A stretch of 64,000 nt of DNA from Candidatus Aenigmatarchaeota archaeon (GCA_016934325.1 JAFGSV010000004.1:11538-75537); one strand, 5' to 3'; positions 22,601 through 64,000 are shown, counted from the first letter of the stretch. Made by a program: numbers and translations. Notes: a model not told the origin generated them from the letters alone.

Positions 22601-23740
22601 CTACGTCGGGTGCTGCGAGAAGACCGCCCGGGATATCCTGGAGAACTTGTCCCAAGTGTCCCACTTTATCCTGGCCTTGGCCTCCCTGAGCAGCCTGGCA
22701 GTTTCCAAATCTATGGAAAGCGGATCGCTGCCGCATATGTATCCCATGTCCTTGGATACGCGGGGGCTGTTCGAAGAGCAGTCGCATCTCTCTGTGACCT
22801 TGTTGAGCGAATTGACGCACAGCATGTTCCCGTTGCGGAACTGCCCGGCGACTGCCCTGGCGGCCAGCGCGAACGCCCTGAAGCCGTGGATTTCCGCCTT
22901 CGGAGGCCTTCTCATCGCCCCTGTCGTGCACGCCCCTATGCACCTCCCGCAAGCGGGGCAATCGCGCGTGTCGAGTATAACCTTCCTGCCGAACATGAGG
23001 CACCCGTTCGGGCACGCGTGAACGCATGACCCGCAGCCCGTGCACAGCCGCTCGTCATAGACCGGGCGCATGTGCGAATGTATCATCCTCTTGCTCTCCT
23101 TCACGACGCACCCCATGGCGAGGTTCTTGATGGCCGCCCCCAAGCCGGTCAGGATGTGGCCCGTGACGTGGGAAAGGAGAAGGAGCGCGTCGGCTTCGGC
23201 GATGGGCTTGGCGATTCGTATCCCATCCACATCCTTCCATTCGTCATCGCTGGCTATGACCACCTCGAACCTGCCGAACCCGTGCCTCTTCGCAAGCTCC
23301 TCGTAGCCCCTCTTCGTGAACCTGCCCTTCTTGTACAGGGTGGTCGTGTCGACCAGGAACGGTTCCCCCCCGTTCTCCCTTATCTTGTCGGCCATCTTGC
23401 CGACCTCGTCCGGCTGGATGTGATTGGGATTGCCGAGCTCGCCCATGTGCAGCTTTATGGCGACCCTGCCCGTGAGATCCACGGGCACGTCCCCGATGTC
23501 TTCGTAAATCCTGTAGCCCAGAATGACCACCAAATCTGAAATAACGCTTTCATCATTTATAAAACAGATGAAACAGGCACATGCTGCCGCTAACGTGCGC
23601 AGAGCCGCATCACCAGGCCAGGGTGCGGCTTGTGCTTTGAAAAGAATAAAAGCTACCGGGATGCTTAATATGAATATGCCCGAAGAAAATACGAAGAAGC
23701 TGGCATTCATCGGGATCCTGATCGCGTCCGTCATCTTCAT
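22601..23740 (-). CDS. DUF362-family protein with two 4Fe-4S ferredoxin motifs
   Basis: AIKLHMGELGN...FLVDTTTLY, CTGCGSCVHACP and CPACGRCIGACT. The true start is probably GTG/TTG at 23530/23533, because TTTTATAAA (23575-23566) lies about 40 nt upstream and the 5' ORF extension overlaps the next gene. Confidence 0.8.
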   Translation of the reverse strand: MKMTDAIRIPMNASFFVFSSGIFILSIPVAFILFKAQAAPWPGDAALRTLAAACACFICFINDESVISDLVVILGYRIYEDIGDVPVDLTGRVAIKLHMGELGNPNHIQPDEVGKMADKIRENGGEPFLVDTTTLYKKGRFTKRGYEELAKRHGFGRFEVVIASDDEWKDVDGIRIAKPIAEADALLLLSHVTGHILTGLGAAIKNLAMGCVVKESKRMIHSHMRPVYDERLCTGCGSCVHACPNGCLMFGRKVILDTRDCPACGRCIGACTTGAMRRPPKAEIHGFRAFALAARAVAGQFRNGNMLCVNSLNKVTERCDCSSNSPRVSKDMGYICGSDPLSIDLETARLLREAKARIKWDTWDKFSRISRAVFSQHPT

Positions 23741-24173
23741 CTCGGTCTTCGTGATTCCCTATCTTGTGATACCCCCCGAGGAGATCCCGAAGCCGACGCT
23801 GGCAGAGGGCATGCCCGTTGAAGCCAGGCACATCGACTATCTGGTAAAGAGGCTTGGCGCAGGCAGGCTGCTGATCGTCCCTGGATCGGGCCGATCCCCT
23901 GAGATGGAGATGCTGGTGATTCCGGCGAACAGCTATTTCACCGTCACAGTCCAGAATGGTATCGCCACGGCAAGGGCGGGCAGGGCAAGCGACCCCGACA
24001 TAAGGCTCACCGGGGACAGGGAGGTGGTCGCGAGGCTGCTTTCTGCCGACGACATACTCGCCGAGGTCAAGCGCCTCAACGAGGAAGGGAAGGTCACCCT
24101 GGAGATGCTGAGGGACAGGGAAGAGCTGATCATGATCGGCTACGAATCGCTGTACAACGAGCTGACGAAATGA
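23661..24173 (+). CDS. Membrane-anchored protein with a possible SCP2-like domain
   Basis: N-terminal TM LAFIGILIASVIFISVFVIPYLV. DIRLTGDREVVARLLSADDILAEVKRL resembles SCP2/alkyl-sulfatase C-terminal domains (weak). The ORF-track start 23523 overlaps the divergent gene. Confidence 0.5.
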   Translation: MLNMNMPEENTKKLAFIGILIASVIFISVFVIPYLVIPPEEIPKPTLAEGMPVEARHIDYLVKRLGAGRLLIVPGSGRSPEMEMLVIPANSYFTVTVQNGIATARAGRASDPDIRLTGDREVVARLLSADDILAEVKRLNEEGKVTLEMLRDREELIMIGYESLYNELTK

Positions 24174-24231
24174 CGCGGGAATTCAGTCCCCTTGGCACGT
24201 CATTTAAATATCAGAAATGAATAAGATTCTT

Positions 24232-24912
24232 ATGGCAGGTCTCAAGAGGGTCAAGACCGGCGTCGAGGGGATAGACGCGCTCGTGGAGGGCGGTTTTCCC
24301 GAAGGCAGCGTGGTTCTGGTGGCCGGTACGCCCGGAACCGGGAAGACCATCCTGGGGATCCAGTACCTGGTCGAGGGGACAAAGAAGAAGGAGATGGGCA
24401 TCCTCATATCCTTCGAGCAGGAGAAGAGCGACATAATACAGCAGGCCGCGCGGTTCGGCTGGGACCTGGAGGCCATGGAGAAGAAGAACCTGATTAGGAT
24501 CGTCAGCATGTGGCCCTCGTCCTTCGACGAGGTGATGACCAAGATATTCAAGTGCCTTTACTTCAAGCCCAAGAGGCTGGTGGTGGATTCCGTGACTTCC
24601 GTGACCTACAGCATGAAGGAGAACAGGGAGGCCTTCCACAAGATGATAGAGAAGCTGAAGAAGACTGGTCTCACCGCTATCCTGACATCGGAGCTGCTCT
24701 CCGGGGACAAGGGGTATTCGAGGGACGGTGTATCCGAGTTCGTGAGCGACGGATTGATAATCCTGTCGAGCACCGAAGCCGCGGGGGAGCACAAGAACCT
24801 GCTGAGGGTCGAGAAGATGAGGTCATGCAAGATAAACAAGGAATCCCACCTGTACGACATCACGGAGAAGGGCTTCCAGCTCACCGCCCCCCCGACCGAC
24901 ATCGGCAAATAA
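24232..24912 (+). CDS. KaiC/RadA-like single-domain RecA-superfamily ATPase (paralog 1)
   Basis: VKTGVEGIDALVEGGFPEGSVVLVAGTPGTGKT (Walker A) and LVVDSV (Walker B). ATTTAAATA at 24202-24210 sits about 26 nt before ATG 24232, which suggests a leaderless mRNA. The ORF-track start is 24217. Confidence 0.85.
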   Translation: MAGLKRVKTGVEGIDALVEGGFPEGSVVLVAGTPGTGKTILGIQYLVEGTKKKEMGILISFEQEKSDIIQQAARFGWDLEAMEKKNLIRIVSMWPSSFDEVMTKIFKCLYFKPKRLVVDSVTSVTYSMKENREAFHKMIEKLKKTGLTAILTSELLSGDKGYSRDGVSEFVSDGLIILSSTEAAGEHKNLLRVEKMRSCKINKESHLYDITEKGFQLTAPPTDIGK

Positions 24913-24943
24913 AGCATTTAATTCCCGTCGCCAATCACTCTTC

Positions 24944-25525
24944 ATGGTCAGGCGCACTATCTTCTTCGCTTCGGTAATCGCCGTCATATCGCTGCTCATA
25001 AACCTGATGCTCGCGAGCTCGAACTATAACCAGGCGAGCCGCATAAGCTCGCTGGAGGCCGCACTGGGCGGCCTCAGGGACGACGACGCGGGGCTCGGGG
25101 ACAAACCCAAGATCGCATGCACCGATCCCGTCCTGAAGGGCGCGAGCGGCATGGAATATGCGAGGCTCAGCGCGAGCGCTGGCAGGGACGGCAAGGTCAC
25201 CCTGGAACTCGAGAACCTGCACGACGATTCCATTTTCGCCATCAACATCAGGGAGGTGCAAGTCGTTTACGACAGGGGCCTGGAGAGGATAGCGGCCGAT
25301 AGCAGGTCAGCCCCCACATTCAAGGGTATTGGCCTCAACTCGACGTGCAGCGGCATCATAGACCCGGGGGAGTCCCTGTCATGCGAGAGCCCGTCATTCA
25401 GCGATATCATAGCAGGCACGCTCGAGCAGGGCGGCGATACGTTCATCATCAATCACCTGTCCGTGGAGCTGGACCTGAAGCCGTATTATTTCGTGGCTTC
25501 GGATATCTGCGTCGGCATTTCCTGA
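24944..25525 (+). CDS. Hypothetical N-terminally anchored or secreted protein
   Basis: 193 aa. N-terminal TM FFASVIAVISLLINLMLA. Cys-containing beta-rich remainder. Confidence 0.5.
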   Translation: MVRRTIFFASVIAVISLLINLMLASSNYNQASRISSLEAALGGLRDDDAGLGDKPKIACTDPVLKGASGMEYARLSASAGRDGKVTLELENLHDDSIFAINIREVQVVYDRGLERIAADSRSAPTFKGIGLNSTCSGIIDPGESLSCESPSFSDIIAGTLEQGGDTFIINHLSVELDLKPYYFVASDICVGIS

Positions 25526-49679: not shown

Positions 49680-51407
49680 CTATCCTTCAAGCTCGTCTAT
49701 GAGCTCCAGCTCGTCGCCCCTGAGCCTGCCCCTGAGCTTGTTGAGGACCGCGACGTCCTCATGGCTGAGCGAGACGTCGAGCTCGTCCCCTTCCTCGATG
49801 TTCCTGCCGACCGTCGCCCCTTCTATCGACACGGCGACCTGCTCCCCCGCCTTGGCATCGCTCACGTTCTCTCCCTGTCTCTGCAGCTCCTTTATCTCGC
49901 CCACGACGTTCCCTTCCTTCTTGAGCTTGTTGCCGGGCTTTATGATGCCCTTCATGACCTCGACGCCGACTATCGCGGGCTTCGACTGCCTGAACAGGTA
50001 GCCCGGCATTATCCTGAATCTGCCGGGCCTGTTCACGCTTGCCAGCATGTCATCCTCGCGCCTCTTTGCCGTGTCCTTTTCCCATTTCTCGTATCCCTCC
50101 ACGAGCCTGTAGATCACGTCGCTTGAGAACACCTTCACTTTGTTGTCGCCGGCAATCTTCGCGATGTCGGGCGGCAGCCTGGCGTTGAATGCGAAGATGT
50201 AAGGCTTGGGCAGGCTCTTCATCTCCATGACATCCTGCTTGGTGACCTCGCCTATCTCGGCCTTCCTGATGGGGACCTCGATGGCCTTCAGGGTCTTGAC
50301 AAGGGCTTCAAGGGATCCAAGAGTGTCGGCCTTGAGCATGACCCCCCTGTTCTCGGTGTCTATCTCGACCTCGCTCACCTCTTCCGAGATCTCCTGCCTG
50401 ACCTCTTCTATCCTTCTCTGGTCGCTCACGGCCCTGAGGGGTGATCCAGCCACCACCTTCTCGATTTCCGGAGCCGCGATCTTCACGCCGCAGGCCGCGG
50501 TGACATGCCTGACAGGCAGGAAGACCTTCTCGACCCTCATCTCCTTCATCGGGTTCGGCTTGAGCATGGCCCTTATCTTGGTCACGACGATGTCCTTGAT
50601 GCCTATGACGAGCCAGTCCCCGTTCTTTATCTCGCCGTCATAGAGGATGACGTCAATGGTCGTGCCGAGGCCCTTGAACTCGTTGACCTCGAGCACCGTC
50701 CCCTTGCCTTCGCCCGAAGTCACGTTCAGCCTGTCCTTCAGGAACCTCTGGGCCAGGCCCGTGAGTAACATCAGCAGGTCAGGGATTCCCTCACCGGTTA
50801 TGCCGCTGACCGGTATTATGCTCAGCTTCTGCCTGAAATCCTCCACCCTGTCGTACCTGTCCGACTCGAATCCTTGGACCGCAAGCTGTCCCGCGATCGA
50901 GTACAGCTTCTTCTCGAGCTCGTCCTGGACCCTCTTGGGCTGGTTGGCCCATGCCTCCACGAAGCTCGCCCCCTCCTTCCGAACCCAGCCGGCGATCCTG
51001 TCTATCTTCGTCAGGGCGATGATGAAAGGCGTCTTGAAATCGCGCAGGAACCTGATCGACTCCAGCGTCTGTGGCTGGATGCCCTCGTTCACGTCTATGA
51101 CGAGGACTGCTATGTCCGCGATAGCCCCTCCCCTCTTCCTCAGGGTAGTGAATGCCTCATGGCCGGGCGTGTCGATGAAAAGGAGCCCGGGGATCTCCAC
51201 CCTCACGTTCATCTTCCTCAGGAGCGGCCCGCACAGTTCCTTGATGTAGCCGATGGGTATCTCGCTTGCCCCTATGTGCTGCGTTATGAGCCCCGCCTCG
51301 CCCTTCGCGACAAGGCTGCCCCTGACGTAATCCAGCAAGGTCGTCTTGCCATGGTCGACATGGCCCAGCACCGCCACTATGGGCTGCCTCAGCGTCATCT
51401 CCGCCAC
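49680..51407 (-). CDS. infB: Translation initiation factor aIF5B (IF-2)
   Basis: RQPIVAVLGHVDHGKTTLLDYVRG, DTPGHEAF and TKID. Domain order is that of aIF5B. Confidence 0.95.
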   Translation of the reverse strand: MAEMTLRQPIVAVLGHVDHGKTTLLDYVRGSLVAKGEAGLITQHIGASEIPIGYIKELCGPLLRKMNVRVEIPGLLFIDTPGHEAFTTLRKRGGAIADIAVLVIDVNEGIQPQTLESIRFLRDFKTPFIIALTKIDRIAGWVRKEGASFVEAWANQPKRVQDELEKKLYSIAGQLAVQGFESDRYDRVEDFRQKLSIIPVSGITGEGIPDLLMLLTGLAQRFLKDRLNVTSGEGKGTVLEVNEFKGLGTTIDVILYDGEIKNGDWLVIGIKDIVVTKIRAMLKPNPMKEMRVEKVFLPVRHVTAACGVKIAAPEIEKVVAGSPLRAVSDQRRIEEVRQEISEEVSEVEIDTENRGVMLKADTLGSLEALVKTLKAIEVPIRKAEIGEVTKQDVMEMKSLPKPYIFAFNARLPPDIAKIAGDNKVKVFSSDVIYRLVEGYEKWEKDTAKRREDDMLASVNRPGRFRIMPGYLFRQSKPAIVGVEVMKGIIKPGNKLKKEGNVVGEIKELQRQGENVSDAKAGEQVAVSIEGATVGRNIEEGDELDVSLSHEDVAVLNKLRGRLRGDELELIDELEG

Positions 51408-51547
51408 CTTCCTTTAATTATGTGCTAGACGCTATTAAAATAAGCTTTATAAACGGGAAAACGGTATGCGAATCCGAATCGGGTCAATGATTTTTTGAAA
51501 TAGAAATGACTAAAAAAATAAAAAAAGGCTGGAGGCCGTTCTGAAAG

Positions 51548-51688
51548 CTAACCTCCGATCCTGAAGACCTTTGTGCCGCATTTGGGGCAAGTGCCCTTCA
51601 TTGCAGGCTTTCCGTTCTTCAGCGTGACCTTCTGTGCATTCGACATCTCAACCTTTGCCTTGCATTTTACACAATAAGCCTGTGTCAT
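51548..51688 (-). CDS. DUF5679-type zinc-ribbon mini-protein (copy 1)
   Basis: GGAGGT then 6 nt then ATG 51688. Translation: MTQAYCVKCKAKVEMSNAQKVTLKNGKPAMKGTCPKCGTKVFRIGG (CxxC...CxxC). The ORF-track 5' extension is rejected. Confidence 0.7.
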   Translation of the reverse strand: MTQAYCVKCKAKVEMSNAQKVTLKNGKPAMKGTCPKCGTKVFRIGG

Positions 51689-51820
51689 CTCAAAACCTCC
51701 GATTTTATTTATGCGTAAATATTCGCGGGAGGGTATATAAATCAAATTCGGGCTGAAATCGGACGAAAGCAAGGCACTTTCACGCTTAACCGACAGTGGT
51801 CGAGCATAGAACTTGCGAGC

Positions 51821-51982
51821 TCACCAGAAATTCGGCTTCGGAGAGCGCTTGATGACATATACGACGGTGCCGCACCTGCTGCACTCGCCCTTAATGGCCT
51901 TCTTCCCGTTCTTCATGACGAACTCCTGCTCCTTGTCGACGTCGACCCTTTCCCTGCACTTGACGCAGTATCCTTCGGTCAT
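51821..51982 (-). CDS. DUF5679-type zinc-ribbon mini-protein (copy 2, not in the ORF track)
   Basis: MTEGYCVKCRERVDVDKEQEFVMKNGKKAIKGECSRCGTVVYVIKRSPKPNFW. It starts 18 nt after the KaiC-like gene stop. Confidence 0.6.
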   Translation of the reverse strand: MTEGYCVKCRERVDVDKEQEFVMKNGKKAIKGECSRCGTVVYVIKRSPKPNFW

Positions 51983-52000
51983 CACTGGCACCGCAAGAAA

Positions 52001-52720
52001 TCATATCTCTATGACCCTGAGCCCCTTCTTGCTGATCTCGAACGGGTGGATCAGGGTGCTGTGGTTCGTCCTTCTCATCTTCCTTATGGTCACGGTCCTC
52101 TTGAACTCCTCCGCCACGGGGACGAACTCCATCTTGATGACGGTGTCGACGATGTATTCGACGATGCCGCCCCCCGAGAGCGCCTCGCTGGTCTCCGGTA
52201 TCGTGCCCGTCAGGAAGGCCGTCACGCCGCAAGACTTCAGCGTGTCGACAAGCTGCATCAGCGCAGCCCTCGCGAGGTACTCGTCCTTGATGAACATCTC
52301 GATGAACGATACGGAATCGAGGACCACCCTCTGGGCATTGAGGGCCTTGATCGCCTCTATTATCTTGTCCGATATGCTGTAGACGTAAGACTTCACCAGC
52401 CTCACCATGTCCTCCGAGGAGATCCCCCTCGTCGGCAGGGCCGGCTTTATGCTCACGAAGCGCACGAGGTTCTTCTTCTCCAGCGTCTCGAAGTCCCAGC
52501 CGAACATGCTGCTTATGTCGGCCTTGACATCGACGTCCCTCTGCTCGGTCGTCACGTAGACACCCGGCTCCCCGGCAAGCGCCCCGCTGTACAGGTAGGA
52601 TATCGCGAAGATCGTCTTGCCGGTTCCGGTCTTGCCCGTTATCAGGTTCGCGCTCCCCTTGAAGAAACCGCCTTCCATCTTGTCATCCAGCCCGAGGACG
52701 CCGGAATTGACCCTGTCCAT
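52001..52720 (-). CDS. KaiC/RadA-like single-domain RecA-superfamily ATPase (paralog 2)
   Basis: VNSGVLGLDDKMEGGFFKGSANLITGKTGTGKT (Walker A) and VVLDSV (Walker B). It starts 25 nt after the stop of the giant ORF. Confidence 0.85.
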   Translation of the reverse strand: MDRVNSGVLGLDDKMEGGFFKGSANLITGKTGTGKTIFAISYLYSGALAGEPGVYVTTEQRDVDVKADISSMFGWDFETLEKKNLVRFVSIKPALPTRGISSEDMVRLVKSYVYSISDKIIEAIKALNAQRVVLDSVSFIEMFIKDEYLARAALMQLVDTLKSCGVTAFLTGTIPETSEALSGGGIVEYIVDTVIKMEFVPVAEEFKRTVTIRKMRRTNHSTLIHPFEISKKGLRVIEI

Positions 52721-52745
52721 ACCATTTGTTTGAATCCCGGTCTAT

Positions 52746-55700
52746 TTATTCTTTTACCATGCTCCTGCCGCTGTCCTTCCTTGTCTCGGTCTTGGGCTTC
52801 TTCCTCCTGGCCAGCCTCTTCGGTCCGGACGCGAGCCACGACAGCATCGCCCCGGGCGAGAGCCCCTTGGTGATGATGATGCCCCTCTCCTTCTTCTTGG
52901 AGGTCATGAGCGCCCTGGTCTTCAGTATCTCCTCCTGCTTCTTGACGAGTATCTTGTTGAAAGTTGCCTCGTCTATCTGCCTCCTGAAATACTGCTTCTC
53001 GGTGTTGACCCTGGTCTGAATGAGCTCCTTCTCGTGCTTAATGAGGCCAGTTATCTCCTTCCCCAGCCTGCTGGAAGGCAAGAGGACCTGGGTCACCAGA
53101 TACGTGATAATGGTCGTCATGATTATAATCAAAGCGAGGATGTACCTGTTGTCGAGCAGGAACTTGTAGATCAGGAGCATGGGGATGGCAGAGTTCATCT
53201 CCGCTATGAAATTCGCCATGTTCCTGACGTCCACCCTCAGGCTATCGATGTCGTCGCTGGTTATGTCCGTCCTCGCGTTGGCTCCCAGCTGGGCGGCGCT
53301 CGACTTCAGGCCGCTCAAGACGCTGACATCGATCCCCGATGAGACCAGGTCCAGCATCTGCCTCTCTATCTCCGCAAGCGCGTTCTCGTTGTCCTGAAGC
53401 TCCCTGATGAGCTCGTTTTCGCTCACGGTCGCCTTGAGCGCCTTCGTTCTCCTGCTGATCCCCGACATGAAGGTGACGTTCACCTCGCATTCCCCGATTG
53501 CCTGGCTCAAGGGGACGTGCATGTTCATGAACAGGTCGGCCGAATCTCCGGCCTCGAGCTCGAGCGCGTCCTGCAGCGAGACCTCCGAGCAGCCGCTCTC
53601 GGTGACGATGCTGATAATCGTCCTGACGTTGCCCGTGTTGTTCGCGCTCACCCTGACCTTGTGGTCCTCGCCCTGCTTTATGGTCGCCTCATATTCGGAC
53701 AGATGGAAATCGAAGCCAAGCTTCTCAAGGCACTGGTCGCTGTACACGCAGCGCTCCGCCGGGCACACCCCCGTGGTCACCTGGCAGTCCCTCTTCTGGT
53801 ATACCTGCTCGCTCGTGCAGTTGCCCAGTCCGCATGCGACGTCAAGCCATCCGGTGCACAGGTTCGAGCAATTGACCATAGGCGCGATGCCGATGCCGGA
53901 TCCCGGGGACCCCGTCCCTGTGTCGCCGTTCCCTCCATTTCCTTCGGATTTCGTGCTGAGTGTGACGAGGCCCGTTCCCGAGTTGTTGAAGGCGTCCGTC
54001 GCCGACAGGCCAAGGGTGAAGGACTGGCCGGCGCTTGAATGCGCCTTGCAGCTGCCGCTTATGTCCAGATACGTGTCCGGCGGGCCCCCGCTCATCGAGA
54101 GCACAGCGTTGGGGCAGGTGAGGTTCAGCGTGCAAATATGGCCGAGGGTCTCCGACCTCTCGTTCCTTATGCTCACGTTTGAATATATCACGCTGGAGGC
54201 GGTGAACTCGGAACCCGAGGAGGGGGATATGAAGTACGGATATACGGCGCTGCTCACGCCGAAATCGAGCCTGGCGTATCCGCTGTTGTCGTTGCCGCTG
54301 ACGTTCAGCTCTATGCTGACGGCCCCCTCCAGGTCCGGCCCCGCCGCGTATTCGTAGGGATTAACTGTGCCGTTCGTGAAGTTCTGGACGCCTTCGATGG
54401 TAACGTTGACGGTCCAGTTCAGGGAAGCGACCGTGTGATTGTTGACGTCGAGCGCGAAGAAAACCAGGTTCTCGCCCCTGTTGTACATGCTGTGGTTGTT
54501 CGTCAGGTTTACTGTATATTCGTCGGTGACGTTCAGGGTGTTGTTGAAGTTCTTGGTCGTGTTGCTTGTCGTGTTCTTGCCGCCGTAATCGCTTGCGAAG
54601 AAGCTTATGTTATACTCCCCCATCATGCTGAGGGGAAGGACGTTGCCTAAGTCCAGCGTCCACCAGCTCACGTTCCCGGACTCGTTGAACTTGGTCATGC
54701 CAAGGCTCCCGTATGTCGAGCCGTCGGGGAAAGTCAGCGAGGCGTTGGCCTCCTTGATCCCCGTCAGGTTCTCCACAACCTCCAGCCACCCGCACGCGTC
54801 ATAGTACATGTTGGCATACCTTATGTGGGCCTTTTCCCCCGTACAGCCGTGCTGGAAGTGGAACCCTTGGATCTCGGGCGGATAGGGGTCTGACAGGATC
54901 ACCTGCAGGCTGGCTGAGCCGGTGCCGTTCATGCCCCGCCCGGTCGTGGAATTGGCGTCGATCATTGAAACGGTAGCCCCAAGATTGATCGCGCCCAGCG
55001 TGTAGTATACGTCCTTGTAGGAGGATGGTGCCGAATAGTTGCAGCCGTAGCATTTCAGGGAATCGTAAGTCAGGGGGTTCATGCTGCTGATGTTGACTAG
55101 GCTTGAATTGCCGAGGCTCATGTTAACGCTCACGTTCCGGGCGTCTCCACCTAGCACGGAGACCCTCGCCACGTGATACGTGTAGCTGGTCCCGTTTATG
55201 AGCGCCCACACGTAAGCCGTGACCGAGAGGGTCCCGTATTCCAGGAACAGCATCGATTCCTCCGACGAGGAATTGCCGGCGCCGGTCGAAGCGTGCGCCG
55301 TGATGGAATGGTTCCCGGACATGTTCGTGTTCGCGAAATCGCCGGAGTATAAGTAGCAAAGGCCCTGGATGCCGCTGGGGGTCAGCGCCTGCAGCTCGTA
55401 TATCTTGATGATGCCGCCCTCCGAGAAGTTCACCTTTATCCTCTTCGCCTTGAAGGGGACGAACCCGCTCAGGTTGTCCCAGGACTTGGCGCCTTCCGGC
55501 GCAGAGATGTTCTGCATGACCGGGACCCACGCGCCCGCATCTGTCTCCTTGTAGAAGACCGACACGTTCGGATCCCCGAAGCCGGCCGCCCTTGACCAAA
55601 GCAGATTGACCATGTTTATGGTCGAGGTCTTGTTCATGATAATCTCCAGCCACTGCTCGCCGCTCCCGCCCACTCCCGTCCAGTAATCATCGAAGTCCTC

Positions 55701-58700
55701 ATTGATGGAAAGGTTGCAATCGGTCAGCGTGCAGTCGGCATAGCTGCCCTGAGACATGGACGCAACGTTCCCGCTGCCGGCCGCGCCGAAGCAGTAGCTC
55801 TCGTTCGCCGATCCGTTCATCTCCAGCCCGACCTCCTCGATGTAACCCGCGAATTCCCTTTTGAACCATGCGGAAACCGAGCTGACATCGGAAACGTTAC
55901 CGGCGACGTAGGCGTTAAGGACGACATTCGTCTCCACGCTTGCGCTCTCCGGGGACGCGAAGGCCACGGGAAGGACGACCTCGTGCGACATCATGCCCGT
56001 CGTATTCGTTCCGTTGCCCGGGACGGCCTCGAGGGCCAGCCTGGTGATGCCGCCGGACGAGGTCAGTACATCCCATCCGAACGAATGCGTGCTTCCGTTG
56101 AGCATGTATTCCACGCTCTTGGGGGGCAGGACGCCGGAAACATTGATAACGGACCCGCCGGTGCTGTTCAGGGTCAGGTTCAGATCGAGCACATCGCCAT
56201 CAGAAGCGGTGACCTCAACGGAGTAGTTGAAGCTCTGGTTCACAAGTATTCGGTAGTTCTGATGTATGAAATGGGCTGAAATCTTCCCGAAGCCGACATC
56301 GAATGATATGTCGCTGTGAACCACCCTCCCGTCCAGGCTCAGGTTCGCGAACATCCGGACTGCGTGACTGCCAGACCTTGACGGGAGCAGGCTGGAATTG
56401 GTGAAATTCCAGTACCTGCAACCGTCCGCGTCCGTGTATGATGAGTTGGACAGCTTCATGCTATCGCTGACATCCGCCGTGTGATTGGAATAGTTGATTT
56501 CCGCCCAAACTGAATCGACTTCGCTCTGCAGGTCCGTCGTGACATTCGCTGACAGGATTATGAGGTCACCGTAATCCGGCTGGCTGTCGGATGCGGAAGC
56601 ATCGATCGCGAACTCGATCACGGTCATGTTCTCCTCCAGTTCATTCTGGGCGCTGGCGTTGTAGTATAGCGAGGGCTGATCAGTGATGTTGCACTTGACG
56701 ACATACCACGCTTCGCCGTCCGTTCCGTCATTGAACGAAAAAGCGGCCCTTCCGTCCGAGTCGGTCATGTTGCTGCCGATATAGGTATCGTTCATGAAGA
56801 AGGAGACGTTGTAGCCAATCAAAGCGGCCGATGAATGGGAATCTGCCACGTAACAAATCATCCTGTTGGAAGTGCCGTTAAGTATGACATCATGATCTAT
56901 TGATGCCGATGCCACGGACGCGTTGGCCCATAGAAAGAACCATGCGGACGGGGATGTCTGGTTAGAGTTTAGGCCGGCCAGGACGTATATGTGCTTGACC
57001 TCGATTTGGCCGCCCCGCACGAATTCGCCGGTGTCCGAGAGGTTCAGGGTGTAGTTCGTCCAGTTCCCGGCGTAAGGTCCGGGGATATAATAATCTTCGA
57101 AATCGCCGGTTCCGTTGTGCCTGACTTTCGCTTCCTCCGGGCCATCCTGCAGTATCCAGTGTGCGGACGCGTTGAGAGCCTGGTCCCTGGTGAACGAAAG
57201 GCCATTACCGAGCGGCCCCCCACTCGTATGGTTCGTCAGGTTCCAGTAATCCCACTCCGCGGACGACCACGACAGGACGATCGGCAGGAAGTCGGTGTTG
57301 TTTTCGTTGAGAGAAAGGCCGTAGTCGCATATGCCGTTCGTCTGGGAGGAGCAGTTCTCGGAGAATCCCGTCCCGTTGGGATGTGCCCAGAAGTTGCCGC
57401 CCAGGCAGGGCCCCCCCATTATGTTCTTTCCGCTCCCGAAGCAGTCGAGCGTGGTGTTCCAGTTGTTTATGGCCGTCAAGCCAACCAACAATGCGTTATT
57501 CGTGTTGTTGAGGAAGTTTTCGAATATGTTGTTCGGGCCCGCCCATCCGGCTTCGTTTGAGATGAAAAACCCACTGGCGCTATTATTGGTTATCGTATTG
57601 TTAGTGATCCGTCCCCTGTGCGAAGAATAGAGTCGGATTCCGTAATTGTTATAGCTGACCGTGCTGTTTGTGATATTTGTGTCGAAGTTGCTGTCGACGA
57701 ATATGCCGATAGACGAATGCGTGGCGTTTATCCCTGTCAGGGAGTTCCTGTGACAGTTTAATTTTACGTATATTCCGTTGCTGTTTTCCCACACAGTTAT
57801 TCCATCCAGCTTGTTGTCGTGAGAAAAGTCTTTTATTTCGATGCCATTTGATTGATCGTGCGAAACCGCGTCGATGACAGTGTTGTTCGAGCTCGTTTGG
57901 AACTGTATCCCGCATTCTGTGTTGTTGTAGGTGCTGCAGTTCAAGATGTAGCTGAAATCCACATAGTGGATATGGAAGCCTGTGTACCAATTTTTCGCAT
58001 GGCAGTTGGCGATGGTGAGATTCCTTAGATGGTTACCAGAAAGACCCTCGACCTGTATGCCCCGGCTATTTAAAAATTTGGAGCCCACTATCTCATGCCC
58101 CTGGCAATCGAACGTCACGTCGCTGGAGGTGATGTTGAAGCACGTCACTTCCGATGACACGGAGTTGTTGAGGTAGTAGACGCCGGGGGAAGTGATGTTC
58201 ATGCAGTCCGTCACGTTGCTGGGCGGGGAAAAGGCCACGCTGATGTTCCATCCCTCGCTCTCGCCCCGATTGCCGTAGTCGTCCATGCAGGACACTTCCC
58301 AATAATAATCGCCATTTCCCATAGCCTGTCGGAATGTCTGGTTGATATTCTTCAGCACGCTTGTGGTAGTGTTCTCGATAATCCCATACACGCCCAGTTT
58401 CCTGATATCTGCCGAAACCCAACCCAGATCGACGGTCCCGCCGATAGAAATCACCTGTTTATTGATATCGTCCCAGACCTGAGCATCAGTAACAACCTTC
58501 CCGAAATCGCCGCTGATATTCTGCACGGTATACGTGTTTATGTTGAATCTGGACGCGTTCAAGTCCCAGATCGGTCCTGACGTCCAATTGAACAATCCCA
58601 TTTGATAGTATACCCAATCACCGACCAGCACACCTGCGGCACCGTATGATCCGTGGGGTGAATTGGCAACGATGGAAGCGGTCTGTGAAGTCTTGTTGAA

Positions 58701-61700
58701 TAGAACTATGGTATCGAAATTGTCCGACGAGTTCTTGCCGTTTATCAAGAAGCATCTCTCATCAGCAGGTCCGACATCGATCAACAATGAATAAGAATAA
58801 TCGCTTGAAGGTAGTTCGTTGCCGGTGTCTATCACTTCACCGTCTGAAAGATCCCATCTCCAGATTGAATTCTGGCCCCCTCCCGCACCCGCCGTGGAAT
58901 TCCTGCCTCCCATGAACCACACATAGGTGCCGTTGCTGCAGGCATGGACATTGTATATCTCGTCCGGCAATTCAGCGCCCGCTGCCCATGAGATGTTGTT
59001 TGCGAAATCAATGAAATACGTCTTGTTCGTATAGGAGCCGTTTGTGCCCCCGCCGCACGCGAATGTTGTTACGTTTATCCTAGCGCATCCTTCCCGGTCC
59101 ATAGGCCAAGTCTTTGTCGGTCCTTGGGAAACGGTGTTAGATGCTATGTCATAAATGAAGGTGTAATTTGTCGGAACGTCCGTTTCGGCAGGGTTGTGAG
59201 TCCAATTCTCCGTTCCGCATATGCCAAAAATGTGCGTTCCGTTGTTCCAGCTGTATGGATTGTCGCAGGCTGTCGGAAGTGCGTTCAAGACGGATACGTT
59301 CTGCAGGGTCGCATTTGACGTTTCCTGAATTATGAGAGTGCAGTTGGTCACGTTGTTGGTATCCGTGACGTTGAAGGTGAAGTTGACCGTGCTTGAAGTC
59401 GCCCATATGTAGCCTTCGGGCGGATGGACCAGCGCCACGGCTGGGGACGTCGCGTCGAGGGTCACGAACCTCGTTTCCGTCGAATTCACGTTGCCGCCCA
59501 TGTCCTGCACGTATCCCTTGAACCTGTGCTGCCCCTCCGCCAGCTGGGTGAATTCACGGGTGAGATACCTCGATGACTGGTTGGCGTATAGCGCAAGGAC
59601 CTCTTCTGAAGACAAGGAGCGGTTGAAGACAAGCACATCGTCCATTGTGCCGTTTATGTATCTATCGGGCATTACTCCGTCAGACCCTATGAACAATTCG
59701 GCTGTGGATATGAAGGGGGGGATTACATCCGTGTCTTCAGCGCAAAAGGTGCCATCCCTGTAAATCACCCCCCTCGTGCTGTCATACGTGAAAACGTAGA
59801 ATACCCAGGTATCGATGGGGATGCTCGGACATGATACATCGAGGGTACAGCCGTCGTTGGTCGTGTTATAAATCCGGATGCGCATGCTCCCCGAGCTGTC
59901 AGCAATGACGGGATTTAAATGATCGTTATCGCCGACAAGAAATACATTCAAGTTTCTATAATTCCTGTAGTAAAGCCAAAAGGCATAGGTGCCCTCAAGC
60001 GAATTGTTCCCGGCGAAAGCGTCCACGTGCACATAATCGCCGTCCCCATCGAAATCGAACCCCTTCCCCATTCTTCCTGCATCAGTCTGCGACGCGTTGC
60101 CCTTTGCAGTCCCGTTGTCGTTGTTCATGTAGTCTATGACCAAGGCGCCCTCGCCCGTCTGGTTGACGTCATCGAACCTCCACCAGTTGATGAGGGAATC
60201 ATCAAAATCCATGATGAGCGATATGTTGGAAGCGGAGCTGTTCGCCGTCACGTTCATGAGAATGCCAGTGCCGGACACCTTCGAGCCATTGTCCGGGGCG
60301 GGGTAAACGAACATTATGTCCGGGGCGGGGAAGACATCGGTCAGCGGCAGGAAGTCCACGTTGCCGCTCGTGAGGTTCAGCCATGTGTCGCATATCCCGT
60401 CTCCATGCATATCCAAACAGGTCTGGGAATGCCCGCTACCGTCGGGGCTAGCCCAGAAGTTGCCGCCCATGCAAGAACCATTTAATATGTTCGGCCCGGC
60501 CGTGCAGTTGAGGGTCGTGTTGAAATGGTTGCTCAAAATGGTCCCCCCGATCTGGGTGTTGTTGGTGTTGTTGAAGAAGTTGTTGTATATGATATTCTGG
60601 CCCGGCGAACCACCCGAACTCGACAGGAAAAGGCCGAATTGCGAGTTGTTCCATATCCGGTTGTCATTAATCGTGCTTCTCTTCATGGAGCTCAGGTATA
60701 TACCGGTATCGATGTTCGAATAGATATTGCCTTTATTTATAATCGTACCGTCTGCGTTGCTGGACAGGTAAACGCCGAAATCGTTGCAGCAGGAGGTGAC
60801 GTTCTCTATCGTGTTGTTGGTGGAGCTGGAAATGGAAATCGCGAAAACGTTTTCATTCGCGGTCGTATTGGTGATAGTGTTCTTGTATGAGCCGCTACTC
60901 AAGGCGATGCCGATAAGAACATTCTTGCTTGCCGTAATGCCGGTCAGGTTGATGAAAGAGCAATTCTCAACCGATACCCCGTGTACGGTGTTGTTCATGC
61001 TCGTGGTGTTCATTATCACGCTGTTGTTGACGTGCCTGAGGTACAGGCCCCTGTCCCACAACGAAAAGTTGCAATTGATAATGGTTATGTTTGTAAGGTC
61101 GGTGCCCGTCGAGGAATTCGCTAATATCCCGTATGTGCCCTGCTCGAGGTTTCCCTGCACGTCATGCCCCTCGCAGTCGAGGGTCACGTGGCTCACGTTG
61201 ATTGTGAAGCATGTGCCCTTGTCCCAGTCATGTATGCCCGCGTTCAGGGAGTAAACCCCCGGGGATGTTATATTGGTGCAGTTGTCGATATCCCCGGGCA
61301 GGGATCCTATCAGCTGGAAGTAGTCGTTCATTATATTGAGCTCCAGGGAGACGTTGTGGGTCTCAGAGGCATTGACGTATCCGCTCTTGTTCGCGTAAAC
61401 CGTGTAGTTGGATGTGGAGTAGTAGTGATTAGTGCCGCCGCTGTTGATGTATTCTATGAGCGACCCGGTCGGTGTCCATCCGTCGCTGGCGGTCGTGAGG
61501 CTCTCGATGAGGGCGCCGCTGCCATTGTATGCGCTCACGGCCGCTCCTGTGATGCCGTTTCCTGCGCTGTCGTTGACGTATGCCCTGTAATGCCACCTCC
61601 TGATTAGCGTCGAGTTCAGATTCACCGTCTCGTTCGCATAAGTGAAGTTGAGGAACGTGTTGTTGAAATTGGATGAGCCGGAATCGTCAGTCATGACCAC

Positions 61701-64000
61701 CCCAGTTCCGTCTATGTTCGTCATGTTCGTGTCCCTGAATAGGTTGTGGCTGCAATGGTCGCCAGTGCCGGAAGAGGATATCCATATGCCATAGTTTGAG
61801 CTCTTGTTCACCTGGTTGCTATCGAAGACATTGTAGTCCGATTCCCCGATACGAATGCAGGCGTGAGAGCCGCCGGTGGAGCAGTTCCAAATGCTGTTAT
61901 TGCTGACTATGCTGTTTTGGATTGCCCGTTCGAAATAGATTCCGTAAAATAAATTCGAATGTATGTAGTTTTCTGTTATTGTGTTGGAGTATGATTGTGT
62001 GTACAGGGATATTCCGTCGTAAATGTTGGAATCGATGGTGTTGCCCTTTATGGTGTTGTTGTGTGAACCGTTGTACAAACGTAACCCATAAGCCGAGTTA
62101 GATTCAATGGTGTTGCCCTCTATGGTGTTGAAGCTGTCGTTTTGGTCTAGGTATATCCCGCTCTTAGTATTCGATGTTAAGGTGTTGTTCATTATGGTGT
62201 TGCTGTCTGAAAAGAAGTTCAGCTCGATGCCCTCTTGAGAGTTCGAATTAGCCGTGTTGTTCGATATGGCGTTCAAATGGGACCAAAATAAGTGTATCCC
62301 GTCAAATCCGTTCGAGCTTGCGTTGCTGCCCGTGATGCTGTTGTTGAAACTGTAGTATATGTATATCCCATGCTCGTCGTTCGAGGTTGCGTTGCTGCCC
62401 GTGATGCTGTTGTTGAAGCCACTTCGGATGTAAAACCCATACGTGTTGTTCTGGCCCGTGCTGTTTAAGATCGCGCTGTCGTTGACATACCTGAAATACA
62501 CGCCGCTGTCCCATTTGCTGATGTTGCAGTTCATTATGGTTATGTTGATGAATTCGCTGCCTTCCGACGAATTGGCGATTATCCCGTACGTGCCCGGTTC
62601 CGATGATCCCCTGATTGAATGGCCTGAGCAGTCGAGGGTCACATCGCTGACGTTGATTGTGAAGCATGTGCCCTTGTCCCAGTCGTATATGCCCGCGTTC
62701 AGGGAGTAAACCCCGGGAGCAGTGATGTTGGTGCAGTTCGTCACGCTCATCCCAGCCGATATCTGCACCGTGTCGCTGGCGTTGAGTACATCATAGCCCT
62801 GCGACGAGCCGTTGCACTCGACGCTCCAGGAATAGAGGCCTGCTGACGTGAAGCTCCTGTCGAAGTAGTAAATGCAGCCGGACTGGTTGTAGGTCATGTC
62901 GAAAGGCCCGAACGGGGTCGCGTTGAATGAGATGTTGCAGTAGACGTCCCACTCGCTTATCGATTCGTTTGAGGTGGTGTTCGTGAAATTGGCGAAGAAG
63001 TGCAGCGACTCGTTGGCTCTCACGGTCTTGCCGCCATAAGGCATCCCCGGGTCCGTCTCGTCCCAGATCGTCATGTTCGAGTTCGATCCCGTGGTATAGT
63101 TGGAGAAGCCCTCGGCCTGGAACAGCAGCGTTCCCGAGCCATAGCTCTGTATCGTGCAATCCGAGCATATGGCGCCGTCACTGTAGATGAGGGGTGACGA
63201 TAGATAGGGCAGCGATGTCAGGGTGAGGTTTACTGTATCGTTGAGCGTCGAGTTAAGGTTGGCGGGATTGGCCCCCGCAAGGTTATGGCCTATGAATACG
63301 TTCGCGTCGAAATCCTGGCCGGATATGTTTACCTTGCCGATCCATTCGATCCTGCCGGCCGAGGCGTTCTCGAGCCAGAACCCGGACACGTTCCCGTAGT
63401 CTATTATCCCGTAGTTAATATCCTTCCCCGTATATTTGGTCAGAGTCGGCATTATCCCGTTATAGACCGTAATTTCCTGGGTGTATGAGCCAGTTTCCGC
63501 ATTGTCGCCGTCGGAGCAGTTCATGGCCCATGAATAGATGCCTTTTGGTAATGTGGCGTTTATTTTATTTGTCAGGCTCTTGGAAATAGAGCTCTGATTC
63601 GACTGGTACTTGGAGCCATCCAGTAAAAGCGTGCAGTTTGATATCTGGGCTAACCCGGTCACATTGAATTTGAAATCGATGGCCGAGGCCGAGCTGATTG
63701 CCGTCCTGTTCGTCGGATAAACGAGCACTATCGTCGTCAATGTCGTGTTCAGATAGAATGTGAAGTTGTTCGCTGACCAATTGCAGTTATGGTAAGTGTC
63801 GCATGCGAAGCAATTCCATTCATAAGTCCCTTCGTTGAGTGTTTTGCTGAAGGTAGTTGTGTTGACCTTGCCTGAAATGCTCTTGGTCTCGTTGGCGGCC
63901 CATTCTCCGGACAGGTTGCCCCAAAGGGTGACGTTGAGAAGAGCCCTGTTGTCCATCGCCGTGCAGTTGAAAGTCACTGCCTCAGTGCCAACCGTGCTCC
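52746..64000 (-). CDS. Giant (>3743 aa, N-terminus outside the window) glycosylation-sequon-rich surface protein with 3 beta-helix modules, LamG-like, Kelch-like and discoidin-like regions, and a C-terminal TM anchor
   Basis: A single ORF with no in-frame stop between 63977 and the window end. Beta-helix modules lie at ~62745-61600, ~61290-60350 and ~58215-57270. LamG-like region at ~60230-59560 (LVFNRSLSSEEVLALY). Kelch-like at ~59300-58400. F5/8-C-like at ~55780-55380. TM at ~53190-53080. The cytoplasmic tail is basic. Confidence 0.85.
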   Translation of the reverse strand, partial: STVGTEAVTFNCTAMDNRALLNVTLWGNLSGEWAANETKSISGKVNTTTFSKTLNEGTYEWNCFACDTYHNCNWSANNFTFYLNTTLTTIVLVYPTNRTAISSASAIDFKFNVTGLAQISNCTLLLDGSKYQSNQSSISKSLTNKINATLPKGIYSWAMNCSDGDNAETGSYTQEITVYNGIMPTLTKYTGKDINYGIIDYGNVSGFWLENASAGRIEWIGKVNISGQDFDANVFIGHNLAGANPANLNSTLNDTVNLTLTSLPYLSSPLIYSDGAICSDCTIQSYGSGTLLFQAEGFSNYTTGSNSNMTIWDETDPGMPYGGKTVRANESLHFFANFTNTTSNESISEWDVYCNISFNATPFGPFDMTYNQSGCIYYFDRSFTSAGLYSWSVECNGSSQGYDVLNASDTVQISAGMSVTNCTNITAPGVYSLNAGIYDWDKGTCFTINVSDVTLDCSGHSIRGSSEPGTYGIIANSSEGSEFINITIMNCNISKWDSGVYFRYVNDSAILNSTGQNNTYGFYIRSGFNNSITGSNATSNDEHGIYIYYSFNNSITGSNASSNGFDGIHLFWSHLNAISNNTANSNSQEGIELNFFSDSNTIMNNTLTSNTKSGIYLDQNDSFNTIEGNTIESNSAYGLRLYNGSHNNTIKGNTIDSNIYDGISLYTQSYSNTITENYIHSNLFYGIYFERAIQNSIVSNNSIWNCSTGGSHACIRIGESDYNVFDSNQVNKSSNYGIWISSSGTGDHCSHNLFRDTNMTNIDGTGVVMTDDSGSSNFNNTFLNFTYANETVNLNSTLIRRWHYRAYVNDSAGNGITGAAVSAYNGSGALIESLTTASDGWTPTGSLIEYINSGGTNHYYSTSNYTVYANKSGYVNASETHNVSLELNIMNDYFQLIGSLPGDIDNCTNITSPGVYSLNAGIHDWDKGTCFTINVSHVTLDCEGHDVQGNLEQGTYGILANSSTGTDLTNITIINCNFSLWDRGLYLRHVNNSVIMNTTSMNNTVHGVSVENCSFINLTGITASKNVLIGIALSSGSYKNTITNTTANENVFAISISSSTNNTIENVTSCCNDFGVYLSSNADGTIINKGNIYSNIDTGIYLSSMKRSTINDNRIWNNSQFGLFLSSSGGSPGQNIIYNNFFNNTNNTQIGGTILSNHFNTTLNCTAGPNILNGSCMGGNFWASPDGSGHSQTCLDMHGDGICDTWLNLTSGNVDFLPLTDVFPAPDIMFVYPAPDNGSKVSGTGILMNVTANSSASNISLIMDFDDSLINWWRFDDVNQTGEGALVIDYMNNDNGTAKGNASQTDAGRMGKGFDFDGDGDYVHVDAFAGNNSLEGTYAFWLYYRNYRNLNVFLVGDNDHLNPVIADSSGSMRIRIYNTTNDGCTLDVSCPSIPIDTWVFYVFTYDSTRGVIYRDGTFCAEDTDVIPPFISTAELFIGSDGVMPDRYINGTMDDVLVFNRSLSSEEVLALYANQSSRYLTREFTQLAEGQHRFKGYVQDMGGNVNSTETRFVTLDATSPAVALVHPPEGYIWATSSTVNFTFNVTDTNNVTNCTLIIQETSNATLQNVSVLNALPTACDNPYSWNNGTHIFGICGTENWTHNPAETDVPTNYTFIYDIASNTVSQGPTKTWPMDREGCARINVTTFACGGGTNGSYTNKTYFIDFANNISWAAGAELPDEIYNVHACSNGTYVWFMGGRNSTAGAGGGQNSIWRWDLSDGEVIDTGNELPSSDYSYSLLIDVGPADERCFLINGKNSSDNFDTIVLFNKTSQTASIVANSPHGSYGAAGVLVGDWVYYQMGLFNWTSGPIWDLNASRFNINTYTVQNISGDFGKVVTDAQVWDDINKQVISIGGTVDLGWVSADIRKLGVYGIIENTTTSVLKNINQTFRQAMGNGDYYWEVSCMDDYGNRGESEGWNISVAFSPPSNVTDCMNITSPGVYYLNNSVSSEVTCFNITSSDVTFDCQGHEIVGSKFLNSRGIQVEGLSGNHLRNLTIANCHAKNWYTGFHIHYVDFSYILNCSTYNNTECGIQFQTSSNNTVIDAVSHDQSNGIEIKDFSHDNKLDGITVWENSNGIYVKLNCHRNSLTGINATHSSIGIFVDSNFDTNITNSTVSYNNYGIRLYSSHRGRITNNTITNNSASGFFISNEAGWAGPNNIFENFLNNTNNALLVGLTAINNWNTTLDCFGSGKNIMGGPCLGGNFWAHPNGTGFSENCSSQTNGICDYGLSLNENNTDFLPIVLSWSSAEWDYWNLTNHTSGGPLGNGLSFTRDQALNASAHWILQDGPEEAKVRHNGTGDFEDYYIPGPYAGNWTNYTLNLSDTGEFVRGGQIEVKHIYVLAGLNSNQTSPSAWFFLWANASVASASIDHDVILNGTSNRMICYVADSHSSAALIGYNVSFFMNDTYIGSNMTDSDGRAAFSFNDGTDGEAWYVVKCNITDQPSLYYNASAQNELEENMTVIEFAIDASASDSQPDYGDLIILSANVTTDLQSEVDSVWAEINYSNHTADVSDSMKLSNSSYTDADGCRYWNFTNSSLLPSRSGSHAVRMFANLSLDGRVVHSDISFDVGFGKISAHFIHQNYRILVNQSFNYSVEVTASDGDVLDLNLTLNSTGGSVINVSGVLPPKSVEYMLNGSTHSFGWDVLTSSGGITRLALEAVPGNGTNTTGMMSHEVVLPVAFASPESASVETNVVLNAYVAGNVSDVSSVSAWFKREFAGYIEEVGLEMNGSANESYCFGAAGSGNVASMSQGSYADCTLTDCNLSINEDFDDYWTGVGGSGEQWLEIIMNKTSTINMVNLLWSRAAGFGDPNVSVFYKETDAGAWVPVMQNISAPEGAKSWDNLSGFVPFKAKRIKVNFSEGGIIKIYELQALTPSGIQGLCYLYSGDFANTNMSGNHSITAHASTGAGNSSSEESMLFLEYGTLSVTAYVWALINGTSYTYHVARVSVLGGDARNVSVNMSLGNSSLVNISSMNPLTYDSLKCYGCNYSAPSSYKDVYYTLGAINLGATVSMIDANSTTGRGMNGTGSASLQVILSDPYPPEIQGFHFQHGCTGEKAHIRYANMYYDACGWLEVVENLTGIKEANASLTFPDGSTYGSLGMTKFNESGNVSWWTLDLGNVLPLSMMGEYNISFFASDYGGKNTTSNTTKNFNNTLNVTDEYTVNLTNNHSMYNRGENLVFFALDVNNHTVASLNWTVNVTIEGVQNFTNGTVNPYEYAAGPDLEGAVSIELNVSGNDNSGYARLDFGVSSAVYPYFISPSSGSEFTASSVIYSNVSIRNERSETLGHICTLNLTCPNAVLSMSGGPPDTYLDISGSCKAHSSAGQSFTLGLSATDAFNNSGTGLVTLSTKSEGNGGNGDTGTGSPGSGIGIAPMVNCSNLCTGWLDVACGLGNCTSEQVYQKRDCQVTTGVCPAERCVYSDQCLEKLGFDFHLSEYEATIKQGEDHKVRVSANNTGNVRTIISIVTESGCSEVSLQDALELEAGDSADLFMNMHVPLSQAIGECEVNVTFMSGISRRTKALKATVSENELIRELQDNENALAEIERQMLDLVSSGIDVSVLSGLKSSAAQLGANARTDITSDDIDSLRVDVRNMANFIAEMNSAIPMLLIYKFLLDNRYILALIIIMTTIITYLVTQVLLPSSRLGKEITGLIKHEKELIQTRVNTEKQYFRRQIDEATFNKILVKKQEEILKTRALMTSKKKERGIIITKGLSPGAMLSWLASGPKRLARRKKPKTETRKDSGRSMVKE

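Follow-up and report, generated by a model that had tools for sequence, protein, structure and literature searches.

How a giant protein on the outside of an archaeal cell might be wired to the interior of that cell is the question raised by a locus of Candidatus Aenigmatarchaeota. This lineage is one of the DPANN archaea, which spend their lives fixed to other cells, and giant surface proteins are the obvious candidates for this attachment; to our knowledge nothing has been described of the intracellular connections of such proteins in DPANN archaea, and we know of few defined partners of archaeal KaiC-like ATPases, although these have been put forward as the main hubs of archaeal signalling. 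The stretch of DNA analysed here, referred to as the window, comprises 64,000 nucleotides (nt) of a metagenome-assembled genome (1.24 Mb, 54% G+C, 79% complete) and encodes, on its minus strand, a giant surface protein, a single-domain ATPase of the KaiC family and two zinc-ribbon mini-proteins of the family DUF5679. We consider it rather likely, if well short of certain, that the window holds a two-gene surface module conserved in the Aenigmatarchaeota, made up of an anchor protein and an ATPase of a clade termed KaiC-A, plus one lineage-specific add-on, and that a ring of KaiC-A would dock on hairpins which the anchor proteins extend into the cytoplasm.

The genes in question are as follows.

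52746-64000, minus strand: giant surface-protein gene, of which the 3' 11.2 kb lie in the window (open reading frame (ORF), translation, Pfam)
52001-52720, minus strand: single-domain KaiC-family ATPase, clade KaiC-A, 239 amino acids (aa) (PF06745, E=4.7e-61)
51821-51982, minus strand: DUF5679 zinc ribbon copy 2, 53 aa (PF18930, E=3.1e-12)
51695-51741, minus strand: promoter and ribosome-binding site of copy 1, with a TTTATATA box at 51734-51741 and GGAGGT at 51695-51700 (sequence)
51548-51688, minus strand: DUF5679 zinc ribbon copy 1, 46 aa (PF18930, E=3.6e-18)

A sequence-only reading of the window had already drawn this layout, and its positions hold: the giant ORF has its stop at 52746-52748 and the KaiC gene its ATG at 52720, leaving a gap of 25 nt; copy 2 starts with an ATG 18 nt past the KaiC TGA; and copy 1, which lies 132 nt beyond copy 2, has the ribosome-binding site and the A/T-rich box that had been assigned to it. 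The same reading had linked the ATPase to the cytoplasmic tail of the giant protein and had grouped both zinc ribbons with them, and these claims are taken up below.

A conserved cytoplasmic hairpin on a giant surface protein

The giant ORF runs past the window to an ATG at G000:C19:76654 (G000 denotes this genome) and encodes 4,123 aa in full, beginning with a Sec-type signal peptide (MAKVNRLHLVVFISFTAILLISIALTSKAAP). Its large, sequon-rich ectodomain, which is probably glycosylated, contains several copies of NosD/Beta_helix as well as Laminin_G_3 and F5_F8_type_C (discoidin) domains according to Pfam, and is followed by one C-terminal transmembrane (TM) helix and a cytoplasmic tail. The protein is a type-I membrane protein with a very large and variable ectodomain of beta-helix, lectin-like and discoidin domains. 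Its last 300 aa, here termed the anchor module, were modelled with AlphaFold2 (AF2) from a 15-sequence alignment, which gave a mean predicted local distance difference test score (pLDDT) of 83.5, rising above 90 through the TM helix and the hairpin. The module is divided as follows.

53151-53648, minus strand: extracellular stalk of the anchor, with an Ig-like beta-sandwich (53424-53648) and three long helices (53151-53414) (AF2)
53076-53144, minus strand: single TM helix (YILALIIIMTTIITYLVTQVLLP) (alignments A1 and A2)
52863-53075, minus strand: cytoplasmic helical hairpin, the proposed docking site of the ATPase (invariant or near-invariant columns in A1 and A2; pLDDT >90)
52749-52862, minus strand: short amphipathic helix LSPGAMLSWLA (semi-conserved 'LsPxAxxxW') and a disordered Lys/Arg-rich end (alignment A1, AF2)

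In the model one continuous helix (residues 168-221) crosses the membrane into the cytoplasm, the chain turns at RRQID, and a return helix (residues 227-262) is followed by short amphipathic helices and then by the disordered basic end. The stalk region is conserved at 23-35% identity in relatives, and the TM helix ends in P35 of alignment A1 (P191 of the 300-aa module), which is the sole invariant residue of that alignment. The hairpin carries the motif R213-x6-Y220-F221-x-R-x-I-D-x3-F230 ... Q238, L242, R245 (numbering of the 300-aa module), so that the conserved anchor residues on the cytoplasmic side are the proline at the end of the TM helix, R-x6-(Q)YF-x-R-x-ID-x3-F ... R, and the looser 'LsPxAxxxW'. 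The sequence-only reading had pointed to the basic cytoplasmic tail as the possible client of the ATPase; the coupling of tail and ATPase is borne out by synteny, as described below, whereas basic charge is not what is conserved, the conserved feature being the helical hairpin motif.

Anchor modules were searched for by tblastn with the last 500 aa, with a profile of the last 130 aa (A1) and with a profile of the 300-aa module. They are present in 44 of the 91 genomes of the order and in 122 of the 371 genomes of the class, and the large proteins that carry them (about 500 to >3,000 aa) differ greatly in their other parts. The 300-aa profile retrieved 381 clusters among 1.84 billion representative proteins (162 at E<=1e-30), in most of which the module forms the C-terminal end; the proteins reach 6,221 aa in length. 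Only one full anchor module, that of the giant protein, is present in this genome, and A1 gives it 155.6 bits in one search and 163.3 bits in another. Three hairpin tails matched nothing in Pfam at E up to 10, and a Foldseek comparison with the PDB gave no match to the hairpin tail at E<=0.001, the only matches being generic Ig-like and long-helix ones. A likeness to the SHOCT cytoplasmic motif was seen by eye only and was set aside, the Pfam SHOCT and related models being unmatched at E up to 10.

Some proteins depart from this pattern. An ORF of 129 aa (G000:C34:14423-14809) aligns with the anchor profile solely in the stretch that holds the cytoplasmic motif (E=5e-6), and proteins of about 130-170 aa that resemble it occur in related genomes, away from KaiC genes. 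Other anchor proteins extend beyond the hairpin (P0048, 1226 aa; P0103, 1637 aa), with three CBS domains in one and an exosortase-like multi-TM domain in another, and the anchor protein of the congeneric genome G001 (L038 6591-12635, 2,014 aa) possesses additional TM segments together with a long tail rich in Lys and Glu.

A dedicated clade of single-domain KaiC ATPases

The product of the KaiC gene scores 206.6 bits against PF06745 (cut-off 26.6), covering profile positions 1-228 of 231, and its best PDB matches, all of them full-length, are to KaiC chains (1.7e-51), PH0186 (2zts, 2e-43) and PH0284 (2dr3, 6.5e-36). Alignment to the KaiC chains places the Walker A motif GKTGTGKT at G29-T36, a glutamate at E59, the Walker B aspartate at D135 and an arginine at R216; from what is established for KaiC, we take E59 to be the catalytic Glu and R216 the Arg finger. 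The residues that align with the phosphorylation sites of the clock CII domain (S431/T432 equivalents) are E188 and Y189, with no Ser or Thr at either position. Because the Walker A and B motifs, the catalytic Glu and the Arg finger are all intact and the phosphorylation sites have no Ser or Thr, KaiC-A is, as judged from these residues, like the CI ATPase domain of KaiC and not like the CII autokinase domain. An assignment to circadian-clock KaiC (NF006799/TIGR02655) was rejected, as there is one domain of 239 aa against the ~500 aa of CI plus CII and the match reaches only 150 bits (cut-off 408) and 98 bits (cut-off 546). The archaellum protein ArlH/FlaH was likewise rejected, the NCBIfam ArlH model giving 45.3 bits against a cut-off of 215.

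This genome has one copy of KaiC-A. A tree of 63 KaiC homologs groups nearly all of the genes that are linked to surface proteins in one clade of 40 (SH-aLRT, the Shimodaira-Hasegawa approximate likelihood-ratio test, 100). The sole linked KaiC outside the clade is a 38%-identical homolog belonging to a two-member sister clade, and both KaiCs of this sister clade also come after TM-anchored surface proteins that bear the hairpin motif. The KaiC-A gene of the window has no Shine-Dalgarno sequence, and is preceded by a short element.

52743-52750, minus strand: AATAAATA box overlapping the stop of the giant gene, about 26 nt before the KaiC ATG (sequence)

This box is conserved in the congeneric genome (L138) and may serve as an internal promoter from which KaiC is transcribed as a leaderless mRNA.

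Anchor and KaiC-A are neighbours in 13 families

The pair is recognised at the window locus by the TM helix, the YF-x-R-x-ID-x3-F hairpin and a KaiC-A gene 25 nt downstream on the same strand. Within the order, 16 of 30 anchor loci have a KaiC gene as their immediate downstream neighbour in the same orientation, 15 of these genes being 52-100% identical to the window KaiC and one 38%. Among contigs from GTDB, 14 of the 21 KaiC-A orthologs (54-66% identity) are preceded by the anchor module, and outside the order but within the class 8 of the 11 anchor loci that were informative are linked to KaiC. When the positions of anchor genes and of KaiC genes (the latter at E<=1e-60) were compared by hand in the genomes in which both could be placed, with loci at contig ends included, the two were same-strand neighbours in 47 of 69 genomes, representing 13 families, mostly at a distance of no more than 60 nt and in a few cases up to about 1.3 kb; owing to the relatedness of these genomes, the counts do not represent independent events. 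Measured from the anchor stop to the KaiC start, the gap falls between -16 and +57 nt in 22 of 24 distinct loci. The genes that flank the pair vary between families and the pair alone is retained. The arrangement of the locus is far from chance; an identical gene order is found again in many genomes.

The two genes also share their distribution. Of the 371 genomes of the class, 70 have both, 4 have the anchor without KaiC-A, 17 have KaiC-A without the anchor and 280 have neither (Fisher p=8e-54, with the genomes treated as independent, that is, uncorrected for phylogeny). The linkage between tail and ATPase that the sequence-only reading had drawn from a single gene neighbourhood thus reappears across the class, both in gene order and in co-occurrence.

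One zinc ribbon belongs with the ATPase and the other does not

Copy 2 matches PF18930 with 46.9 bits (cut-off 27) and has the CxxC...CxxC pattern; a GTG at 51991 is an alternative start. It keeps all four cysteines, replaces the basic 'AQKVTLKNGKP' of copy 1 with an acidic stretch, and ends in a conserved 'IKPxPxxG(M/F/Y)W' tail. In all 12 of the family loci the distance from the KaiC stop to the start of copy 2 is -4 to +18 nt, and in five of them the two genes overlap as ATGA or GTGA. Because of the conserved new tail and acidic patch together with this tight spacing, copy 2 is best described, on comparative grounds, as a neofunctionalised duplicate of DUF5679 that forms a bicistron with KaiC-A; it exists in the window's family only, and there would be translationally coupled to KaiC-A. 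Most genomes with the anchor-KaiC pair have no adjoining zinc ribbon. The most likely role of copy 2 is to serve the KaiC-A ATPase as adaptor or output subunit. In the window and the congeneric genome the KaiC TGA and the copy 2 ATG are in one frame, 18 nt apart, and genus g3 has a 4-nt overlap instead; the shared frame is probably a coincidence.

Copy 1 (65.9 bits against PF18930, cut-off 27, with the same CxxC...CxxC pattern) has a different history. Its TTTATATA box and CGGAGGT are kept in 11 of the 11 family loci in which copy 1 was located, and DUF5679 is single-copy in 76 of the 91 genomes of the order, being present in 21 of the 23 high-quality ones; a second copy is confined to the window's family and one other genome. 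In 20 loci of other families the orthologs of copy 1 are 65-85% identical; none of the 20 has a KaiC gene within 5 kb, and in 16 copy 1 adjoins an archaeal histone gene (PF00808, E=7.8e-13). These DUF5679/histone pairs (L042-L061, for example L042 5032-5615 and L046 5053-5532) are mostly divergent and 50-250 nt apart, and the histone gene of the window's own genome is at G000:C5:3234-3434. The histone neighbourhood points to a chromatin- or nucleic-acid-associated role that DUF5679 may have. Copy 1 is an independent housekeeping gene outside the anchor-KaiC module, because it is near-universal as a single copy, has its own promoter, has a histone neighbour and has no KaiC nearby in other families. 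The twin zinc ribbons of the sequence-only reading therefore part company: copy 2 stands as a KaiC-coupled gene within the window's family, and copy 1 falls away. In genus g3 (e.g., L033 5080-5100) a second conserved box, CCTTTATAAA, lies just after the copy 2 stop and upstream of the TTTATATA of copy 1; it could be an additional promoter, or one that drives antisense transcription.

Surroundings of the locus and other KaiC paralogs

Downstream of copy 1 the minus strand continues with a putative terminator and a housekeeping gene, which completes the order giant ORF, KaiC, copy 2, copy 1 and aIF5B over 49.6-64 kb of the window.

51512-51526, minus strand: two T7 runs after copy 1 (sequence)
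49680-51407, minus strand: aIF5B/IF2 translation initiation GTPase, the downstream housekeeping neighbour (Pfam GTP_EFTU, IF-2 and GTP_EFTU_D4)

Oligo-T runs are established terminators of archaeal transcription, and the T7 runs likely serve in this way to separate copy 1 from aIF5B. A synteny comparison shows that the order KaiC, copy 2, copy 1, aIF5B is kept within the window's family. Upstream of the giant gene are divergent, housekeeping-looking genes, recognised by eye, such as phosphoribosyl pyrophosphate (PRPP)-synthetase-like and Sm-like ones. A pilus or archaellum locus was rejected, as both flanks are housekeeping-like (PRPP-synthetase-like, Sm-like and aminotransferase-like by eye, aIF5B by Pfam), and no arl or pilus genes were recognised among the ORFs around the locus, only some of which were run against Pfam. 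An anti-phage defence system was also rejected: PADLOC gave one weak and partial P-loop match (mad8, 23 bits), and neither zinc ribbon was matched.

The window contains a second KaiC paralog at 24217-24912 (PF06745, E=1.1e-58), just upstream of gyrB/gyrA. It had been described as sitting between membrane-anchored proteins, and the flanking ORFs (window 23523-25525) agree with this in having one hydrophobic segment each, central and TM-like in a 216-aa protein and N-terminal in a 193-aa protein. No Pfam family matches either neighbour, the anchor motif is missing from both, and the idea of a second anchor partner for this paralog was dropped, the genome having only one full module and the flanking ORFs being unrelated. 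In many other families a further clade, KaiC-B (35-42% identical to KaiC-A), often follows right after KaiC-A, usually in convergent orientation (L103, L104, L110, L111, L119, L122, L123, L132, L133, L137, L149, L154). KaiC-B was not found in the window's genome, where copy 2 fills that slot.

A possible mechanism and its alternatives

The arrangement that we favour, a conserved anchor-KaiC-A module with copy 2 as its addition, can be put into mechanistic terms. The anchor gene and KaiC-A would be co-expressed as an operon, a KaiC-A ring would dock on the cytoplasmic hairpins beneath the membrane, and docking would link the surface protein to the ATPase and its nucleotide state. Coupling could run outside-in, the ATPase reporting binding or tension on the ectodomain, or inside-out, the ATPase clustering or controlling the adhesin, and the data favour neither direction. 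Physical contact between KaiC-A and the hairpin is a proposal. A bolder version, which is possible although we regard it as doubtful, is a class-wide transmembrane device in which contact or tension on a giant, hypervariable host-binding glycoprotein would pass through stalk and TM helix to a hexameric KaiC ATPase, with a zinc-ribbon output that the window's family would have recruited from a histone-linked housekeeping protein; if true, such a device would wire host contact to chromatin or gene expression.

Several observations weigh against the favoured arrangement. Anchor and KaiC-A are apart in 22 of the 69 genomes, among them most of the family to which the window belongs (genus g3). In g3, KaiC-A (73-80% identity) stays beside copy 2 and aIF5B, and the anchor protein (about 950-1,150 aa) is encoded elsewhere; the gene that precedes KaiC-A is then UppP-like, a 513-aa membrane protein or geranylgeranyl-reductase-like (names judged from the sequences alone). 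Some of the unlinked genomes have a degraded hairpin motif. KaiC-A therefore retains a function for which adjacency is unnecessary, and for which the hairpin may be unnecessary as well. No fusion of hairpin and KaiC, or of hairpin and any other ATPase, was found among nine representatives with at least 300 residues after the hairpin, and the TATA-like box before the KaiC gene could allow KaiC to be transcribed independently.

One alternative is that the two genes are co-regulated without contact, KaiC-A being a general signalling-hub ATPase that rides in a surface-protein operon or regulates the expression, export or glycosylation of the anchor protein, with soluble partners such as copy 2 or, elsewhere, a second KaiC paralog. 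We think this unlikely, although the identity that KaiC-A holds in genus g3 while unlinked from the anchor, the KaiC-B genes that are often convergent right after KaiC-A, the translational coupling of copy 2 to KaiC-A, and the KaiC-family genes reported as putative regulators beside other archaeal surface structures (PMC4858521) all fit it. It is opposed by the fact that hypervariable surface proteins conserve a cytoplasmic hairpin with near-invariant residues, which argues for a cytoplasmic partner, by the single phyletic pattern that hairpin and KaiC-A show across the class, and by junctions that overlap or measure 4-8 nt, which suggest stoichiometric co-production. That the adjacency is merely inherited synteny without functional meaning is very improbable. 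All of the genomes belong to one class, and shared ancestry can hold neighbours together for a time, but the pair persists over 13 families in which the flanks are unconserved and in which identity falls to 23-35% for the anchor and 50-66% for KaiC-A, its junctions are operon-like, and anchor and KaiC-A co-occur even when they are unlinked. Least probable of the readings weighed here is a four-part system of giant adhesin, ATPase and both zinc ribbons, to which we give hardly any credence. The four genes lie close together on one strand, and the order KaiC, copy 2, copy 1 is seen in every family genome that could be examined; against this stand the near-universal single copy of copy 1 (76/91 genomes of the order), its other-family loci (KaiC within 5 kb in none of 20, histone adjoining in 16 of 20), its own conserved TATA box and Shine-Dalgarno sequence and likely terminator, and the lack of a zinc ribbon beside the pair in most anchor-KaiC genomes. 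For copy 1 the four-part reading is largely refuted.

The locus offers a concrete and testable pair, a hairpin of roughly 70 residues with a few near-invariant positions and one dedicated ATPase clade. About 70 natural anchor/KaiC-A pairs are available for covariation analysis, copy 2 is a second small partner in one family, and the histone neighbourhood is the first clue from context for DUF5679.

Comparison with known systems

A literature search, outside which the 2017 hub paper itself lay, yielded no publication on the anchor hairpin, on its pairing with a KaiC clade, or on the function or a partner of DUF5679. What is already known is that KaiC genes occur beside archaeal surface structures (PMC4858521) and that archaeal KaiC-like ATPases may act as hubs (PMC5847659); the anchor-hairpin pairing was not found in the literature. 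According to the papers that cite it, the latter proposal casts these ATPases as hubs of signal transduction (Makarova, Galperin, Koonin 2017, mBio, as cited in PMC5847659, PMC10983859). KaiC-A resembles such hub KaiCs in being a stand-alone ATPase with several paralogs per genome, each with its own neighbours and some beside surface-structure genes (PMC4858521), and differs from them in that a conserved cytoplasmic hairpin would pair it with a giant surface protein anchored by a TM helix, and in its DUF5679 partner; neither feature is mentioned in the papers searched.

Both mini-genes fit DUF5679 (PF18930), and the tail and acidic patch of copy 2 are not found in the housekeeping copy. With PH0186, PH0284 and the CI domain of KaiC the ATPase shares a full-length match, the Walker A and B motifs, the catalytic Glu and the Arg finger. 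Unlike cyanobacterial KaiC, it has one domain instead of two, Glu and Tyr at the CII phosphorylation sites and a different genomic partner, and no clock role is implied. The bacterial LapA/LapD/LapG system links a giant adhesin, across the membrane, with a nucleotide-dependent protein of the cytoplasm. The proposed nucleotide-dependent cytoplasmic control of a giant adhesin in the window would be similar as a functional analogy only, since the proteins are unrelated and differ in topology, and the Lap organisms are bacteria with an outer membrane.

In crenarchaea, ArlX is a single-TM protein whose helical cytoplasmic domain binds the KaiC-like ArlH in the archaellum motor together with ArlI (PMC8978795). 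The two systems have in common a single-TM protein with a helical cytoplasmic domain, a single-domain KaiC-like partner and a machine at the cell surface, contact having been demonstrated for ArlX and being inferred here; they differ in that ArlX has no large ectodomain, whereas the window locus has no recognised archaellum or pilus genes and a hairpin that matches no family. By analogy, ArlX-ArlH would be the closest precedent for a contact between anchor and KaiC-A.

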